DNA from: Eubacteriales bacterium
GTDB lineage: Bacteria; Bacillota; Clostridia; Oscillospirales; CAG-272
Length of the DNA: 64,000 nucleotides
Reading direction: 5' to 3'
NCBI GenBank assembly: GCA_045656765.1
Contig: JAZORU010000024.1
Coordinates: forward strand, 1,386-65,385
Within the stretch, counting starts at the first letter, position 1. The number at the start of each line of letters is the position of its first letter. The notes beneath the pieces are model-generated. The model saw only the letters and a list, made by a program, of their open reading frames with translations. It was not told where the DNA came from and ran no database searches. The translations under genes and the position numbers were made by a program. Shown here one piece after another: positions 1 through 43,370 of this stretch.

Positions 1-1413
1 ATCCTGGAATATTGCGCCGAACATAGAATAAAGACCGCCTGTGTCATACTCGCGTATGTCTGCCCCATCAAGAAGTATCTGCCCTTCTGTTGGGTCGTAG
101 AGGCGTGTCAGGAGCTTAAGCAGCGTAGTTTTTCCCGCACCGTTGAGTCCGACAAGCACGACAGTATCCCCCGGCTCTACCGTAAAGCTTATGTTTTTGA
201 GCACGTCGCGCTTCGTGCCGGGATATCTGAAGGAAACGTCGCGGAACTCTATCGTATGGCCTATATGTCTCTCTACCCTTCGGGCTTGGGCAAGTGTTGG
301 TACAAGCTTTTGCTTTTCATTCATAAACACTATCATATTGTCAATAAAAAGCGTTCCCTCGTATATGCTTGACGTAGTTGTGACGAGTGTAGCTACGCAA
401 GCGGCAATCGAGGTAAGCGCGCCCGTATAAAGAGAATAGTCGCCTATCTGCCCGCCGCCAACTGTAACCGTATACGCGATAAAGAAGAAAAGCGCGCAGT
501 TGGTAGCGGTAGTAACCAAGGATATGGCAATACTCCACACGCTTTCGGTGGAAATCAGTTTTTTAATTCCCGAAAAATATTTGTCAAAAACCTTGTTGTA
601 ATTAAAAATGAACGTGTCGGAAAGTCCGAACAGTCTGACCTCCTTTACGACGTCCTTGTTCACGAGAAGGTCGGAATAATACGCCATCTGCCGTCTTTCC
701 TTCGAGCGATGTCGCATATAGTTAAAGTTTTTCTTTCTGAAGGAAAATGTGATTATCGCGCTCGGCAAGGAAAGCAGAATTACGACGAGAGGCGCAAACC
801 ACGCAACCGCCGCAAGTATTACGATAAAGCTGACGGCAGATATAACGGTGCTGACGATAGTAAAGGTGGAGCGTATAACGCCTATCGGGCGGATACCTGC
901 CTCGCGGTTTGCATTTTCAAACTTCTCGTAAAAATCCGGCATATCGAAGGAAGCGACGTCTATTTCCTTTGCCTTGTTCATGATTTTAAGCTTTACGTGA
1001 TTTGTAACCACCTCACTCGATATACGTGTGACCATATTGCTTATATTGCCGAGAAGTCCTACCAAAAACATATACCCGAACTGCAATAGCATAGCGGGCA
1101 AAAGCAGTGTGCTCACTGTATCGAAGCTCGGTTGTGTCGGTGCAAGCACGCTCGCAACGGCGTTTAGCAGATTCGCTGATATGTAAGCCGAAATAACGGG
1201 GGATACGCCCTCGAATGCCGCCATAAATACCATAACGAACAAAAGTGATTTCTTTGCTTCCCACACGAGCCGCACTATATATGAAAGGCGCGAGAAAAAG
1301 CCTCCCATTACCTTTTTTATATACGACGGTACTTCCTTTATGCTTTTCGGTGGCGGCTCCTTATATTTATTTCTGTTATCCGGCGGAGGTCCCATAAATC
1401 TTGACGGTCCCAT
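1..1413 (-). CDS. ABC exporter, fused membrane + ATP-binding protein (MsbA/type-1 exporter-like); C-terminal part runs off the window
   Basis: Absent from the ORF track because no stop lies in the window. My minus-strand translation from ATG 1413 (AGAGGT 5 nt upstream) reads MGPSRFMGPPPDNRNKYKEPPPKSIKEV...; then a multi-helix membrane domain; near position 1, IEFRDVSFRYPGTKRDVLKNISFTVEPGDTVVLVGLNGAGKTTLLKLLTRLYDP (Walker A). Confidence 0.8.
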   Translation of the reverse strand, partial: MGPSRFMGPPPDNRNKYKEPPPKSIKEVPSYIKKVMGGFFSRLSYIVRLVWEAKKSLLFVMVFMAAFEGVSPVISAYISANLLNAVASVLAPTQPSFDTVSTLLLPAMLLQFGYMFLVGLLGNISNMVTRISSEVVTNHVKLKIMNKAKEIDVASFDMPDFYEKFENANREAGIRPIGVIRSTFTIVSTVISAVSFIVILAAVAWFAPLVVILLSLPSAIITFSFRKKNFNYMRHRSKERRQMAYYSDLLVNKDVVKEVRLFGLSDTFIFNYNKVFDKYFSGIKKLISTESVWSIAISLVTTATNCALFFFIAYTVTVGGGQIGDYSLYTGALTSIAACVATLVTTTSSIYEGTLFIDNMIVFMNEKQKLVPTLAQARRVERHIGHTIEFRDVSFRYPGTKRDVLKNISFTVEPGDTVVLVGLNGAGKTTLLKLLTRLYDPTEGQILLDGADIREYDTGGLYSMFGAIFQD

Positions 1414-10820: not shown

Positions 10821-11363
10821 CTAACAACAGCGGTTAATATATCCTTCGGTTGCATTTTCTCTACTTATTATCTTCGCAGGATTTCCGACAACTATCGAGT
10901 GATCGGGAACGTCAAAGTTTACAAAAGAATTTGGGGCTATCATAACGTCGCTTCCTATATTGATATTTCCTACAATTACTGCGTTTGCGCCTATCCACAC
11001 GTTGTCAGCTATCGTGGGGCTACCCTTACGCTTGCCTCTGTTTTCCTGCCCTATCGTAACGCCCGTTGCGATATTGATATTTTTTCCGAGTTTCGCGTTA
11101 TGGTTAATAATAATTCGTCCCGTATGACCGATAAAAAGACCGGGACCTATACTTGTATCAGGCGGTATTTGTATGTGCGTTTTCCTTGACATACTTATGT
11201 ATCGCATATTGTAATACTTCTTGGACAGAAAATTTTTCGAACATTGGCATTTCCTGAACACACACAAGAACTTAACGTCAAGAGGTCTTAACAGCTTTTG
11301 CTTAAGCGTTTCTTTTTGGGAACCGTAATATCTATACAGATCCTGCGAAAACAGCTGATTCAT
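10821..11363 (-). CDS. Left-handed beta-helix (hexapeptide) O-acetyltransferase, serine acetyltransferase/WcaB-like
   Basis: 180 aa. Hexapeptide repeats (IGPGLFIGHTGRIIINHNAKLGKNINIATGVTIG...IGANAVIVGNINIGSDVMIAPNSFV...VVGNPAKII). RBS GGAGG. Confidence 0.8.
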   Translation of the reverse strand: MNQLFSQDLYRYYGSQKETLKQKLLRPLDVKFLCVFRKCQCSKNFLSKKYYNMRYISMSRKTHIQIPPDTSIGPGLFIGHTGRIIINHNAKLGKNINIATGVTIGQENRGKRKGSPTIADNVWIGANAVIVGNINIGSDVMIAPNSFVNFDVPDHSIVVGNPAKIISRENATEGYINRCC

Positions 11364-11374
11364 GCTATTCCTCC

Positions 11375-11595
11375 AAAATAAAAAGAGCGTTAACCGAAGT
11401 TAACGCCCTGAAAAACGCAAACTCCGATTGTCGCTCAACAAATCAAATCAAATCAAAACGGGAATAGCTTCTGCATCCTAATTTGTGAAATTTGCGTTTT
11501 ATCCAAATTCAAAAATCAGGATGCGAAAAAAGGGTATAATTATCCCATAAAAAGAAACTACACCGTTTTTTTGTTTATTCGATTTGTTGAGCAAA
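11375..11595 (-). ncRNA. Candidate structured cis-regulatory leader RNA, copy B (upstream of the acetyltransferase)
   Basis: Plus-strand coordinates: P1 11581-11592/11433-11444 (12 bp); P2 11558-11569/11455-11467; P3 11513-11524/11473-11484; pseudoknot 11492-11500/11412-11420; terminator 11385-11408 plus U tract. Homologous to 42955-43165. Confidence 0.6.
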
Positions 11596-11598
11596 GAC

Positions 11599-11627
11599 AT
11601 TATAACACAATTTTGAAGAAAAAACAA
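11599..11627 (-). promoter_or_regulatory. Promoter driving leader copy B (TTGTTT-17-TGtTATAAT on minus strand)
   Basis: Plus attata 11599-11604 and aaacaa 11622-11627. The -10 region tgtgttataat is nearly identical to that of copy A (agtgttataat). Confidence 0.55.
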
Positions 11628-13884: not shown

Positions 13885-14928
13885 TTACCTACATTCAGCC
13901 GCAACCGTGCAAAGCAATCTTTCAAGCGCAATAAAGTCGGAAAAACCGAGCTTCATTTCACTGTCCGCCTCAACGCACAGCTCCATTGCTCTCTCAAGCT
14001 TTTGCGTGGGTATATTCTTTGCCGTTCTTGCGTAAAGCTTTATCTGATACTCGTGCTTTTTGAGCTTTTTTGCAATTCCCGCTTCATCATATCCGCCTGC
14101 AAGCATCTCTTTTATCAAGATAAGCATACTGTACACCGAGCATACGGCTGAAAGCACGCCCTTCGGCTTCATATCCGAGTCGCCGCGCTTGTACTCGCCA
14201 AGCACTCTGAAAAGCTCCTTCGTATCCCCTGCGAGCACCGCATTTGCAAGCGCAAACGCGCCTATTTCCTCGACCTTTGAGGTGATATATACTATATCCC
14301 CACGAGAGATAGTATCCTCGCCCTTTGCGTGCTTATACGCGCACAGCTTCTCTATCTCACCCGAGAGCATCTGCATACTTCTTCCGCATCGCTCTATAAT
14401 AAAAGCGCAGTCAGCATCCGCAATTCTGAGTCCCTCGTGCTCGACGTGCCGTTTTATCCACACCGCCAGCTTTTGCGGGGTGCTTTTTTCAAACACTATC
14501 GTCTTTACGCCGTCGCCGAGAGCGGAGCTCACCTTTGCTTGAGTGCGTGAGTTACGGGAAGTATCGTACATATCTACGTCAGCGTAGATAATAAACACAC
14601 ACTCGTCGTTTGCCATAGCCTCCCGAACTATCTCTGAAAGTGCTTTAAGCTGGTTTTCCTTTGCCGAGTTGAAGTTAAAGCTCACAAGCTCGCACAGTCT
14701 CTTTTCCTGCATAAACGGGGCTGTTGCCACGTCGTTTATAAGGCTTCCGAAGCCTCCGTCGGTAAAATCCGCAACTGTATGGTTAAAGCTCTCGAAGCCT
14801 TCCTCGGAAAGCACACTCTCGCGCATACGCAAAAGGTAGTGTCTCTTCAGATATTCTTCCTCACCTGCCAGAAGATAAACTCCCGAAAGGCCTGTTTTTA
14901 TTTCATTTCTAAGCTCTGCTTCGGTCAT
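13885..14928 (-). CDS. holA: DNA polymerase III delta subunit
   Basis: LSGVYLLAGEEEYLKRHYL N-terminal motif, ~347 aa. Start at ATG 14928 directly after AAGGAGG (track start 14979 lacks an RBS). Confidence 0.8.
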   Translation of the reverse strand: MTEAELRNEIKTGLSGVYLLAGEEEYLKRHYLLRMRESVLSEEGFESFNHTVADFTDGGFGSLINDVATAPFMQEKRLCELVSFNFNSAKENQLKALSEIVREAMANDECVFIIYADVDMYDTSRNSRTQAKVSSALGDGVKTIVFEKSTPQKLAVWIKRHVEHEGLRIADADCAFIIERCGRSMQMLSGEIEKLCAYKHAKGEDTISRGDIVYITSKVEEIGAFALANAVLAGDTKELFRVLGEYKRGDSDMKPKGVLSAVCSVYSMLILIKEMLAGGYDEAGIAKKLKKHEYQIKLYARTAKNIPTQKLERAMELCVEADSEMKLGFSDFIALERLLCTVAAECR

Positions 14929-42145: not shown

Positions 42146-42219
42146 GCGGATGTAGTTCAATGGTAGAATCCCAGCCTTCCAAGCTGGTCGTGCGGGTTCG
42201 ATTCCCGTCATCCGCTCCA
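42146..42219 (+). tRNA. tRNA-Gly (anticodon UCC), CCA encoded
   Basis: GCGGATGTAGTTCAATGGTAGAATCCCAGCCTTCCAAGCTGGTCGTGCGGGTTCGATTCCCGTCATCCGCTCCA. Acceptor GCGGATG/CATCCGC, anticodon loop CTTCCAA. Confidence 0.9.
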
Positions 42220-42227
42220 AAAACAAA

Positions 42228-42273
42228 GCCAAGTCGTAAGACTTGGCTTTGTTTTTGGAAATGAAGCACGCCC
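42228..42273 (+). repeat. Left copy of a perfect 46-bp direct repeat (contains the tRNA-Gly terminator hairpin)
   Basis: gccaagtcgtaagacttggctttgtttttggaaatgaagcacgccc, identical to 42829-42874. Confidence 0.9.
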
Positions 42274-42445
42274 TACGGCGTATGAAGCACCCTTCGGGCA
42301 TGAAGCAGGGCTTGCGCCCTATGAAGCGTGCCTTCGGCACACGAAAAAGCGTGCTTCGCTTCATGCGAGCGTATGCGAGTGCTTCGTGGCAACGCAGTTG
42401 CCGCTTCATGTTTGCGCATGCAAACGCTTCATTCAAAAAACAAAT
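42262..42445 (+). repeat. Array of ATGAAGCR words each attached to a short GC hairpin: 4 forward units, 3 inverted units
   Basis: Forward: ATGAAGCA-cgccctacggcg, ATGAAGCA-cccttcgggc, ATGAAGCA-gggcttgcgccc, ATGAAGCG-tgccttcggcac. Inverted: gcgtgctt-CGCTTCAT, ggcaacgcagttgc-CGCTTCAT, tttgcgcatgcaaa-CGCTTCAT. Confidence 0.8.
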
Positions 42446-42476
42446 TTTGAAAGACATACTAAAGGACGGTTTTATT

Positions 42477-42827
42477 ATGGTTAATGACAAGCTTTCTGAA
42501 CAATCTTTAGAGTTTGCTGTTCATATTATAAATCTCGTAAAACAGTTAAAAGAACAACGCGAAAGCATAATTTCTAACCAAATAGGCAGAAGCGGTACGA
42601 GTGTCGGTGCAAACATTCGCGAAGCAAAGTATGCTCACGGCACAGCTGATTTCGTTTCAAAATTGCAAATTTCACTTAAAGAAGCAAACGAAACAGGTTA
42701 TTGGCTCGAGCTACTCTATAAAACAAATTATATAAACGAGGAACAGTATAATTTTTTCGAATCAAAGTGCAAATCCTTAAGAGCTATGCTTGTATCTTCA
42801 ATCAATACAGCAAAGAAAAACACATAG
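42477..42827 (+). CDS. Four-helix-bundle protein (23S rRNA intervening-sequence protein / Avd family)
   Basis: MVNDKLSEQSLEFAVHIINLVKQLKEQRESIISNQIGRSGTSVGANIREAKYAHGTADFVSKLQISLKEANETGYWLELL matches the family signature (R-SxxSIxANIAEG, L-xA-GS--E---WL) as I recall it. ~116 aa is the usual size. Track start 42243 rejected. Confidence 0.8.
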   Translation: MVNDKLSEQSLEFAVHIINLVKQLKEQRESIISNQIGRSGTSVGANIREAKYAHGTADFVSKLQISLKEANETGYWLELLYKTNYINEEQYNFFESKCKSLRAMLVSSINTAKKNT

Positions 42828-42828
42828 T

Positions 42829-42874
42829 GCCAAGTCGTAAGACTTGGCTTTGTTTTTGGAAATGAAGCACGCCC
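42829..42874 (+). repeat. Right copy of the perfect 46-bp direct repeat
   Basis: Identical to 42228-42273, offset 601 bp. Begins 2 nt after the four-helix-bundle stop codon. Confidence 0.9.
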
Positions 42875-42919: not shown

Positions 42920-42948
42920 TTGATTTTTTAAAATACAAGTGTTATAAT
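42920..42948 (+). promoter_or_regulatory. Promoter driving leader copy A (TTGATT-17-TGtTATAAT)
   Basis: TTGATT 42920-42925, 17-nt spacer, extended -10 TGTTATAAT ending 42948. Confidence 0.6.
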
Positions 42949-42954
42949 AACCTT

Positions 42955-43165
42955 GCCAAACAATCTGAATATTTATTTCTATAGGTATATTCTTTTTTTA
43001 AGGGGATACTATACCCTTTTGCGCGCAATCTTACATACTGATTTTGGAAAAAATGCAGCTCCCGTAAGATTGTGTAGTATACCTATACTTCTAACAGATT
43101 GTTTGGCGACAATTGGAGTCTGCGTTTTTCAGTGCGTTGACTTCGGTTGGCGCACTTTTTATTTT
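42955..43165 (+). ncRNA. Candidate structured cis-regulatory leader RNA, copy A (upstream of the AbrB-like gene)
   Basis: P1 42955-42967/43095-43107 (13 bp); P2 42980-42989/43078-43087 (10 bp); P2a 43000-43004/43014-43018; P3 43026-43034/43064-43072 (9 bp); pseudoknot 43048-43058/43120-43129; terminator 43131-43156 + TTTTTATTTT. Confidence 0.6.
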
Positions 43166-43187
43166 ATGGATTTATATGGAGGTAGTT

Positions 43188-43370
43188 ATGGAAAGTAACG
43201 TAGGAATAATAAGAGAGGTAGACAAGCTCGGAAGAATAGTTATACCAAAAGAATTCAGAACGCTTTTCAAATTAGACAGCATTGTAGAGGTTATAGGCAC
43301 AGAATCCGGCATATTTATAAGAAATCCCGAATATAAGCTTGTCAAAATAGACAAGGACGAAAAAAACTGA
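43188..43370 (+). CDS. Minimal AbrB/SpoVT-type swapped-hairpin DNA-binding protein (60 aa)
   Basis: MESNVGIIREVDKLGRIVIPKEFRTLFKL...VEVIGTESGIFIRN parallels the AbrB N-domain (GIVRKVDELGRVVIPIELRRTLGI). GGAGG RBS 5 nt before ATG 43188. Track start 43113 lies inside the leader terminator. Confidence 0.75.
   Translation: MESNVGIIREVDKLGRIVIPKEFRTLFKLDSIVEVIGTESGIFIRNPEYKLVKIDKDEKN

Follow-up and report, generated by a model that had tools for sequence, protein, structure and literature searches.

What kind of element precedes two unrelated genes in the same stretch of a clostridial genome, one encoding a hexapeptide-repeat acetyltransferase and the other a 60-amino-acid AbrB-fold protein? The question is raised by a 64,000-nucleotide stretch of an Eubacteriales assembly (contig JAZORU010000024.1, positions 1,386 to 65,385; hereafter the window), in which the acetyltransferase gene on the minus strand and the AbrB-fold gene on the plus strand each follow a folded intergenic region. 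The region before the acetyltransferase gene, an RNA of about 210 nucleotides (nt) at 11375-11593 on the minus strand, is referred to here as copy B, and the region before the AbrB-fold gene, at 42954-43165 on the plus strand, as copy A. We consider it likely that copy B is a cis-acting 5′ leader RNA belonging to a large and apparently undescribed family in the Clostridia, which controls its genes by attenuation of the anti-antiterminator type. We therefore classify the family as an orphan riboswitch-like attenuator, distinctive in its architecture and otherwise within a known kind of regulator.

A sequence-only reading of the window had proposed two copies whose stems differ in sequence and nevertheless remain paired, and this proposal holds: both copies have a common promoter type, a rod composed of the helices P1, P2, P2a and P3, a conserved tail, and a terminator. 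The sensor rod of copy B (11432-11593) is defined by the minimum-free-energy fold, by a check of the single helices and by covariation over 91 family members. In the fold, P1 joins 11577-11593 to 11432-11448, P2 joins 11553-11569 to 11455-11472, P2a is a hairpin at 11532-11546, P3 joins 11513-11524 to 11473-11484, and the tip hairpin occupies 11487-11510. The helices as proposed earlier were all recovered, P1 with 12 perfect pairs (11581-11592 with 11433-11444; -16.4 kcal/mol), P3 at the positions just given with 12 pairs including one G-U (-15.0 kcal/mol), and P2 with a mismatch and a bulge (11558-11569 with 11455-11467; -8.6 kcal/mol). The rod of copy A (42954-43108) comprises P1 at 42954-42967 and 43095-43108, P2 at 42980-42989 and 43078-43087, P2a at 43002-43016, P3 at 43025-43034 and 43064-43073, and the tip at 43038-43062.

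Compared with shuffled sequence, the fold of either copy is much more stable (z-scores of -8.05 for copy B and -6.43 for copy A). Pairwise alignment shows conservation of the promoter -10 box, the ends of P1, P2a, the tip loop, the tail and the terminator, next to P2 and P3 stems that are unrelated in sequence, and the tail GACAATYGGAGTYTGCGTTTTTCAG has two exact occurrences in the window where none is expected by chance. When copy B by itself served as the basis of a covariance model (172 nt, 56 pairs), copy A aligned to this model from end to end with 55.9 bits and an E-value of about 1e-11. In this structural alignment, the claimed positional equivalence of the helices stands for P1, P2a, P3 and the tip, but P2 is partly out of register. 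Searches of the 64-kb window with nhmmer, with the covariance model and with the tail revealed no copies beyond these two; a weak model match at 1500-1603 proved to be an ordinary terminator hairpin.

The element is not confined to this genome. A DNA pattern scan with the tail pattern ACAATNGGAGTNTGCGTTTTTCAG against species-representative genomes matched 27 of them, all metagenome-assembled Clostridia, with labels including Oscillospiraceae, Acutalibacteraceae, Ruminococcus, Ca. Scatosoma, Ca. Ornithomonoglobus and others, and a second scan, using the 3′ arm of P1 together with the start of the tail against metagenome contigs, gave at least 120 matches, many labelled as human gut. Every match carries a promoter, P1, the rod, the tail, the terminator, a ribosome-binding site and an open reading frame (ORF) in this order. 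Together the scans yielded more than 140 members in addition to the window copies, and the matches listed include 130 distinct elements, 114 of which have a recognizable P1. Among these matches, those most similar to copy A are leaders from a Ruminococcus-labelled and an Acutalibacteraceae metagenome-assembled genome (L029 and L033).

Selection on the RNA fold rather than on the sequence of the stems, as had been suggested from the two copies alone, is borne out across the family. A consensus from MAFFT and RNAalifold recovered P1 and the terminator only, with the variable stems misaligned, and the covariance model from copy B was used instead; it yielded 91 full-length matches from 88 sources. 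In this alignment 91.0% of the cells are standard pairs, compared with 66.0 ± 0.5% for shuffled partners and at most 51% for slid partners, and double changes occur in 1177 cells, compared with 339 ± 18 in the shuffles; none of 500 shuffles reached the observed values, and while the pairing figures are inflated because the alignment was fitted to the structure of copy B, the margin is large. Changes on both sides are found in 50 of the 56 pairs, and P3, with a pairing level of 94%, shows between four and six types of pair at each of its positions. Folding of each sequence separately, which is independent of the model, gave the same architecture, and over 40 members the mean folding z-score was -8.2, with all values at or below -5.4. 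The length from the 5′ end to the tail motif ACAAU (159.5 ± 4.5 nt) varies less than that of any component. G-U pairs outnumber A-C mismatches by 450 to 136 (3.3 to 1), which points to selection on the sense-strand RNA and not on a DNA palindrome.

This asymmetry bears directly on the idea of an element acting at the level of DNA, either an invertible segment bounded by P1 as in the cwpV system or a miniature mobile element, which we regard as very improbable. Such an element would make sense of the P1 arms, which are conserved inverted repeats around some 135 bp between promoter and gene, of the regulated surface proteins, which are typical of phase variation, and of one member (L108) with tails at both sides of its rod. 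However, a bias of 3.3 to 1 between G-U and A-C speaks for selection on one RNA strand, three nested helices and a pseudoknot covary, the interior points the same way in 113 of 114 distinct members, and no two loci are inverted versions of each other. A mobile element would moreover be expected in random orientation and context with target-site duplications; instead, the elements always lie between a promoter and a co-oriented ORF, in a fixed position with respect to the -10 box and to the ORF, target-site duplications did not come to light, and only two copies are present in 64 kb.

The sequence-only reading had rightly noticed the conserved loops and tail, but it had overlooked two pairings in which they take part, a tip-tail pseudoknot of 15 base pairs and an antiterminator. 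The tail GGAGUUUGCGUUUUU is complementary to AAAAACGCAAAUUCC in the tip of P3, comprising the tip loop and the 3′ strand of the tip stem, so that a long-range pseudoknot of up to 15 base pairs can form, and the tip loop and the tail are conserved largely because they pair with each other. In copy B, the 25-nt tail GACAAUCGGAGUUUGCGUUUUUCAG occupies 11408-11432, and its pseudoknot strand GGAGUUUGCGUUUU (11412-11425) faces the tip strand AAAACGCAAAUUUC (11487-11500; tip loop plus 3′ strand of the tip stem) in a duplex of -17.9 kcal/mol, with covariation in the family. The equivalent parts of copy A are the tail at 43108-43132, with its pseudoknot strand at 43115-43129, and the tip strand at 43048-43062.

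Covariation of the pseudoknot was scored on a MAFFT alignment, in which the tip and tail blocks align without structural guidance. Pairing was found in 97.9% of the cells for a core of 9 base pairs and in 93.6% for the version of 15, with compensatory changes at five pairs, among them a change from A-U to G-C that is seen 10 times at a single pair. Members with variant sequences illustrate the compensation: GUGUUUUU is matched by AAAAACAC, UGUAUUUUU by AAAAAUACA, UGCAUUUU by AAAAUGCA and UACGUUUUU by AAAAGCGUA, and the same applies to UAUGCAUUUUU with AAAAAUGCAUA in a shorter subtype described below. The tails pair with the sensor of their own RNA at -18.3 kcal/mol, compared with -15.7 kcal/mol for the sensors of other members, and none of 2000 permutations was as good; this preference argues for pairing in cis. 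As a bimolecular estimate, the pseudoknot duplex amounts to about -18 kcal/mol, compared with about -3 kcal/mol for the isolated tip hairpin.

The second pairing involves the same tail. Its segment AAUYGGAGUY is complementary to RACUUCGGUU, which constitutes the top three pairs and the loop of the terminator hairpin. In copy B the intrinsic terminator lies at 11375-11408, with a stem-loop at 11385-11408 and a U-tract at 11375-11384, and the terminator proposed earlier was also called by a scanner, at 11384-11409 on the minus strand; the antiterminator strands are AAUCGGAGUU (11420-11429) in the tail and AACUUCGGUU (11392-11401), equal to the top of the terminator, as supported by energies and family covariation. 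In copy A the terminator is found at 43132-43155 and the U-tract at 43156-43165, and the antiterminator strands at 43111-43120 and 43139-43148. Across the family, 95.1% of the antiterminator cells are paired, the pair 229-251 changes from U-A to C-G 11 times, 89 of 113 members have the centre of the pairing at the terminator loop, and the pairs within each RNA are better than cross pairs between members, with none of 2000 permutations reaching the observed value. Even the difference between the two copies of the window is compensatory, with GAGUC facing GAC in copy A and GAGUU facing AAC in copy B. The second copy in L033, which was found by homology only, pairs GGAAUCG with CGAUUUC and GCAUUUUU with AAAAAUGC, and compensation also extends to units 2 and 3 of L124, which lie outside the search patterns, unit 3 having a variant pseudoknot strand (UCUGCAUUUUU).

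Taken by itself, the expression platform of tail and terminator has two structures of nearly equal energy: copy A prefers the antiterminator (-19.1 compared with -14.8 kcal/mol for the terminator), and copy B the terminator (-16.3 compared with -15.6 kcal/mol for the antiterminator). Once the pseudoknot strand of the tail is blocked, the terminator is the only one of the two that forms in the calculation. Pseudoknot and antiterminator are mutually exclusive because both use GGAGU, and the pseudoknot leaves the terminator untouched and is hence compatible with it. Terminator and antiterminator also exclude each other, so that the platform has the form known from riboswitches.

These pairings suggest how the leader might work. 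Transcription from a promoter of the sigma-A type would start at the first base of P1, and the RNA would present in turn P1, P2, a three-way junction with P2a and U-runs, P3 and the tip hairpin, followed by the 25-nt tail, the terminator, the ribosome-binding site and the gene. With the tip hairpin closed, the tail would be free to form the antiterminator, allowing read-through; with the tail captured by the tip, no antiterminator could form, and the terminator would switch the gene off. The pseudoknot is thus probably an anti-antiterminator, the folded RNA leading to termination. Geometrically, the rod probably folds back at the three-way junction, placing P3 along P2 and P1 and bringing the tip to the tail that is tethered to the base of P1, and such a fold-back would explain why the lengths of the helices are conserved despite their drifting sequences. 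Presumably, a small molecule or a protein would act as effector at the junction or the tip and shift the balance, with the junction (P2a and U-runs), the AAUA bulge and the tip as candidate contact sites.

The mutually exclusive pairings also bear on a simpler reading, in which the leader is a constitutive structured 5′ untranslated region (UTR) serving stability, processing or protection of the 5′ end, and the alternative pairings are mere folding intermediates. The burial of the 5′ end in P1, the long perfect helices, which could be determinants of stability or of RNase III cleavage, and the lack of an evident ligand pocket would all fit. We nonetheless think this quite unlikely, since a strong intrinsic terminator stands between promoter and gene in essentially all members, and two exclusive partners for one GGAGU, each maintained by compensation, are a hallmark of a switch.

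The placement of the elements relative to promoters and genes is equally regular. Upstream of copy B, the promoter read from the sequence, with the -35 box TTGTTT, a 17-nt spacer and the extended -10 box TG-T-TATAAT, is present as described at 11599-11627 (minus strand), but was not called by a consensus promoter scanner, since its -35 box fits at three of six positions only. The scanner did call the promoter of copy A (TTGATT-17-TATAAT with TG upstream; 42920-42948, plus strand), with 10 of 12 matches. Among 111 members with enough upstream sequence, a -10 box was found in 81, usually with TG upstream, and in 67 of these 81 it stands at the same fixed distance from P1, which indicates that the transcripts start at P1. 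Downstream, 115 of the 130 elements are followed by a co-oriented ORF with a Shine-Dalgarno sequence at most 124 nt after the U-tract (median 26 nt), a gap that leaves no space for a second promoter; the elements without a called ORF mostly represent contig ends or misses of the heuristic. A conserved and covarying structured domain thus occupies the 5′ UTR between the -10 box and the ORF, as it does in riboswitches.

In the window, the genes are those named from the sequence at the outset. Copy B is followed by a ribosome-binding site (11370-11374) and a gene (10821-11374 including this site; minus strand, ATG at 11363) for a 180-amino-acid acetyltransferase of the Hexapep type, a left-handed beta-helix, which is monocistronic with a convergent neighbour. 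Copy A is followed by a ribosome-binding site and a gene, likewise monocistronic, for the 60-amino-acid AbrB-fold (MraZ/MazE-like) protein (43178-43370, plus strand). This disparity fits the heterogeneity of the downstream set as a whole, in which 105 distinct proteins share no common pathway and provide no metabolic clue. Pfam assigned BspA-type leucine-rich repeats to eight of them, SHOCT to seven, zinc ribbons to at least six and dockerin to four, with singletons from many other families. By crude heuristics, a lipoprotein box is present in 22% of the downstream proteins compared with 4% of background ORFs, and a signal-like N-terminus in 50% compared with 19%.

Each unit, made up of a promoter, some 210 nt of structured RNA and a terminator, could also be a stand-alone gene for a trans-acting small RNA, read-through into the next gene being incidental, or a dual function could exist; dual-function RNAs have been reported for terminated riboswitch transcripts. 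We judge this unlikely. Every unit does have its own promoter and a strong terminator, and the highest stability is estimated for the pseudoknot combined with the terminator, so that terminated RNA may be the main product. Against this, 115 of 130 units precede a co-oriented ORF with no promoter in between, a conserved and covarying antiterminator would have no purpose in a small-RNA gene, and the fit of each tip to its own tail indicates pairing in cis.

Several points weigh against the interpretation as a cis-acting attenuator and should be kept in mind. In one member, L124, three full units, all with a promoter of their own, follow one another, an arrangement also compatible with independent small-RNA genes. 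Both collecting scans fixed ACAATNGGAG, so that the conservation of this segment and of P1 is overstated, and the apparent invariance of the ACAATNGGAG part of the tail is partly due to members having been found by patterns that contain it. The energies of the pseudoknot are bimolecular estimates without penalties for loops or topology, and a further stem of four pairs at the top of the antiterminator (UGCG with NGCG) can pair, but has no support from covariation. Beyond the pseudoknot and the antiterminator, few unpaired nucleotides are conserved (the AAUA bulge, UAUAC in P2a and the U-runs), and this conservation is less pocket-like than in typical metabolite aptamers. Finally, the data show the fold, the two alternative pairings, the family and the placement next to promoters and genes, while we infer in which direction the switch works, how the rod folds back and that an effector exists.

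A bolder version of the attenuator should be interpreted with caution. It would make the family a new class of riboswitch, in which the rod is an aptamer for a small signal, possibly a second messenger, and the tip-tail pseudoknot switches a dispersed regulon off (or on); we see this as possible, with the chances somewhat against it. We are similarly tentative about the regulon that such a riboswitch would control, namely the lipoproteins, BspA-type leucine-rich-repeat proteins, dockerin proteins and small membrane proteins of gut Clostridia.

Variant members show how far the architecture can be modified. A shorter subtype of about 157-177 nt without P2a (L057, L061, L063, L068, L073, L076, L082, L126 and L170) has its A-run strand paired in a hairpin of its own with an internal sequence that mimics the tail (GCAUUUUUAU with AUAAAAAUGC), making explicit the competition between a decoy and the tail. 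In L044 (2868-3117, minus strand), the P2a hairpin and the U-run that follows it are present three times in a row; they behave as a repeatable module there, which may be a pause or binding element. L047 (about 500-620, plus strand) has no sensor, a short hairpin replacing the rod before an intact tail, antiterminator and terminator; this variant precedes a surface protein of 1853 amino acids, and constitutive read-through would be expected under the proposed logic.

In L124, the three complete promoter-leader-terminator units (14040-14693, minus strand) precede one and the same ORF. For units 2 and 3, both the P1 helices (beginning with GCGACUUAG and GCGGCACAAG) and the 5′ segments of the tail before GGAG are different, and the promoters are identical, which suggests a recent duplication. 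In L108 (242-510 of the metagenome contig JAEIGA010956224.1), a tail, a terminator and a gene stand at each end of a single rod, those on the left reading from the opposite strand, and the usual promoter would not fit in; the locus may reflect a chimeric assembly or a recombination event between the conserved, mutually reverse-complementary arms of P1. The ACAAU in the 5′ part of the tail repeats a part of the 5′ arm of P1 (11420-11448, minus strand; 43095-43120, plus strand), and the inner 3′ arm of P1 may thus form a small hairpin with the tail, UUGU-UUGGCG-ACAA. Both sides of a hairpin of this UUGU/ACAA type change together in unit 2 of L124 (ACUAA ... UUAGU).

Known RNA families did not account for the element. 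With Rfam 15, the whole window at the gathering score and 17 member loci gave tRNA only, the copy A region had no match at E≤10, and the copy B region at the same threshold had chance-level matches only, the best being RNA-OUT with 22 bits compared with a gathering score of 41. Three scans of viral contigs returned only chance matches within unrelated sequence. A description of the motif is absent from Rfam 15 and from the literature that was searched, although large catalogues of unnamed RNA candidates could still list it. A leader peptide was considered and rejected, since no start codon, frame or length is conserved, the would-be start in the tip is TAG in seven members, and ORF lengths are erratic.

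The surroundings of copy A deserve a brief description. Immediately upstream lie a tRNA (69.5 bits; 42146-42216) and a gene of the 23S_rRNA_IVP family (42243-42827), and a bidirectional terminator hairpin (42829-42848) stands between these and the copy A promoter. Within the terminator of copy A itself there is a -35-like TTGACT with TATTTT 17 nt further on (43137-43165; 9 of 12 matches), probably by chance, and the conserved GUUGACUUCGG would give many members the same -35-like feature. Mechanical ORF calling places an ORF of 81 amino acids across the leader (42953-43198, plus strand). Leaders such as this one, and the upstream ORFs in L001-L006, could be annotated as hypothetical proteins in metagenome-assembled genomes. 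In other genomes, the leader is missing from orthologues of the AbrB-like gene and is therefore not tied to this gene family. The AbrB-fold homologues in L001 (886-1435), L002 (2653-3180) and L003 (2655-3192) stand divergent to a conserved gene for a 79-amino-acid protein, helix-turn-helix-like by inspection, and share an intergenic region with repeated TGACATTCA-like boxes; the gene pair looks like a two-gene regulator or an antitoxin-type module.

If the proposed attenuation is correct, a large share of the uncultured gut Clostridia would use one RNA switch for many unlinked genes of the cell envelope and surface. The carriers would include Oscillospiraceae, Acutalibacteraceae, Ruminococcus-like bacteria and relatives from the guts of humans, ruminants, birds and termites, and the regulated surface proteins would be those that mediate contact with host, fibre and phage. 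The family would offer an orphan regulatory RNA with a testable mechanism, a route to a signal or an RNA-binding regulator in organisms that are hard to study, and an example of an unusually long pseudoknot between an apical loop and a tail that apparently serves as an anti-antiterminator. Its entry into RNA family libraries would also stop the annotation of spurious ORFs in these intergenic regions.

Comparison with known systems helps to place the family. The c-di-GMP-I and c-di-GMP-II riboswitches of Clostridia such as C. difficile control a dispersed regulon of many unlinked adhesin and surface genes through terminators. The dispersed, surface-protein-rich set of genes under terminator control described here is similar, but the Rfam models for GEMM-I and c-di-GMP-II have no match in the window or in the 17 member loci, and to link the copy B family to any ligand would be pure speculation. 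Leaders bound by the protein CsrA have sites with the consensus ACA..GGA and expose at least two GGA motifs in loops or unpaired strands; the tail ACAAUYGGAG resembles this consensus loosely, and a second GGA in the tip (UUUGGA) is present in both copies of the window and is GGU in most members. The cwpV leader of Clostridioides difficile likewise places an element bounded by inverted repeats between the promoter and the ORF of a cell-surface gene, where it decides on termination, but it does so by inversion, whereas the present family shows no inversion polymorphism and covaries at the level of RNA with the G-U asymmetry described above.

The remaining parallels concern attenuators proper. 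With those of the trp and his type, in which the pairings 1:2, 2:3 and 3:4 compete, the family has in common overlapping alternative hairpins that end in a terminator; here, however, no leader peptide is involved. T-box leaders resemble it in their long rod sensors, which keep their helix lengths over changing sequences, in a sequence-conserved antiterminator that overlaps the terminator, and in their many copies per genome in the Bacillota. Unlike them, it has no specifier loop or T-box sequence, the T-box model had no match at E≤10 in the copy A and copy B regions, and, in place of genes for aminoacyl-tRNA or amino-acid functions, with no amino-acid genes among the 105 downstream ORFs, it precedes surface proteins, lipoproteins and genes without known function. 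The transcriptional OFF riboswitches of the SAM-I/S-box type share with it the 5′ leader position, a sensor that sequesters the antiterminator strand and thereby permits the terminator, and a set of three mutually exclusive pairings. They differ in that their expression platform is not conserved in sequence as it is here, in a family without a match in Rfam, and above all in the sequestering element: in the SAM-I/S-box riboswitches this is the closing helix of the aptamer, whereas here it is the apical loop and 3′ strand of a hairpin located about 65 nt upstream of the tail, with which it forms a pseudoknot of 15 base pairs.

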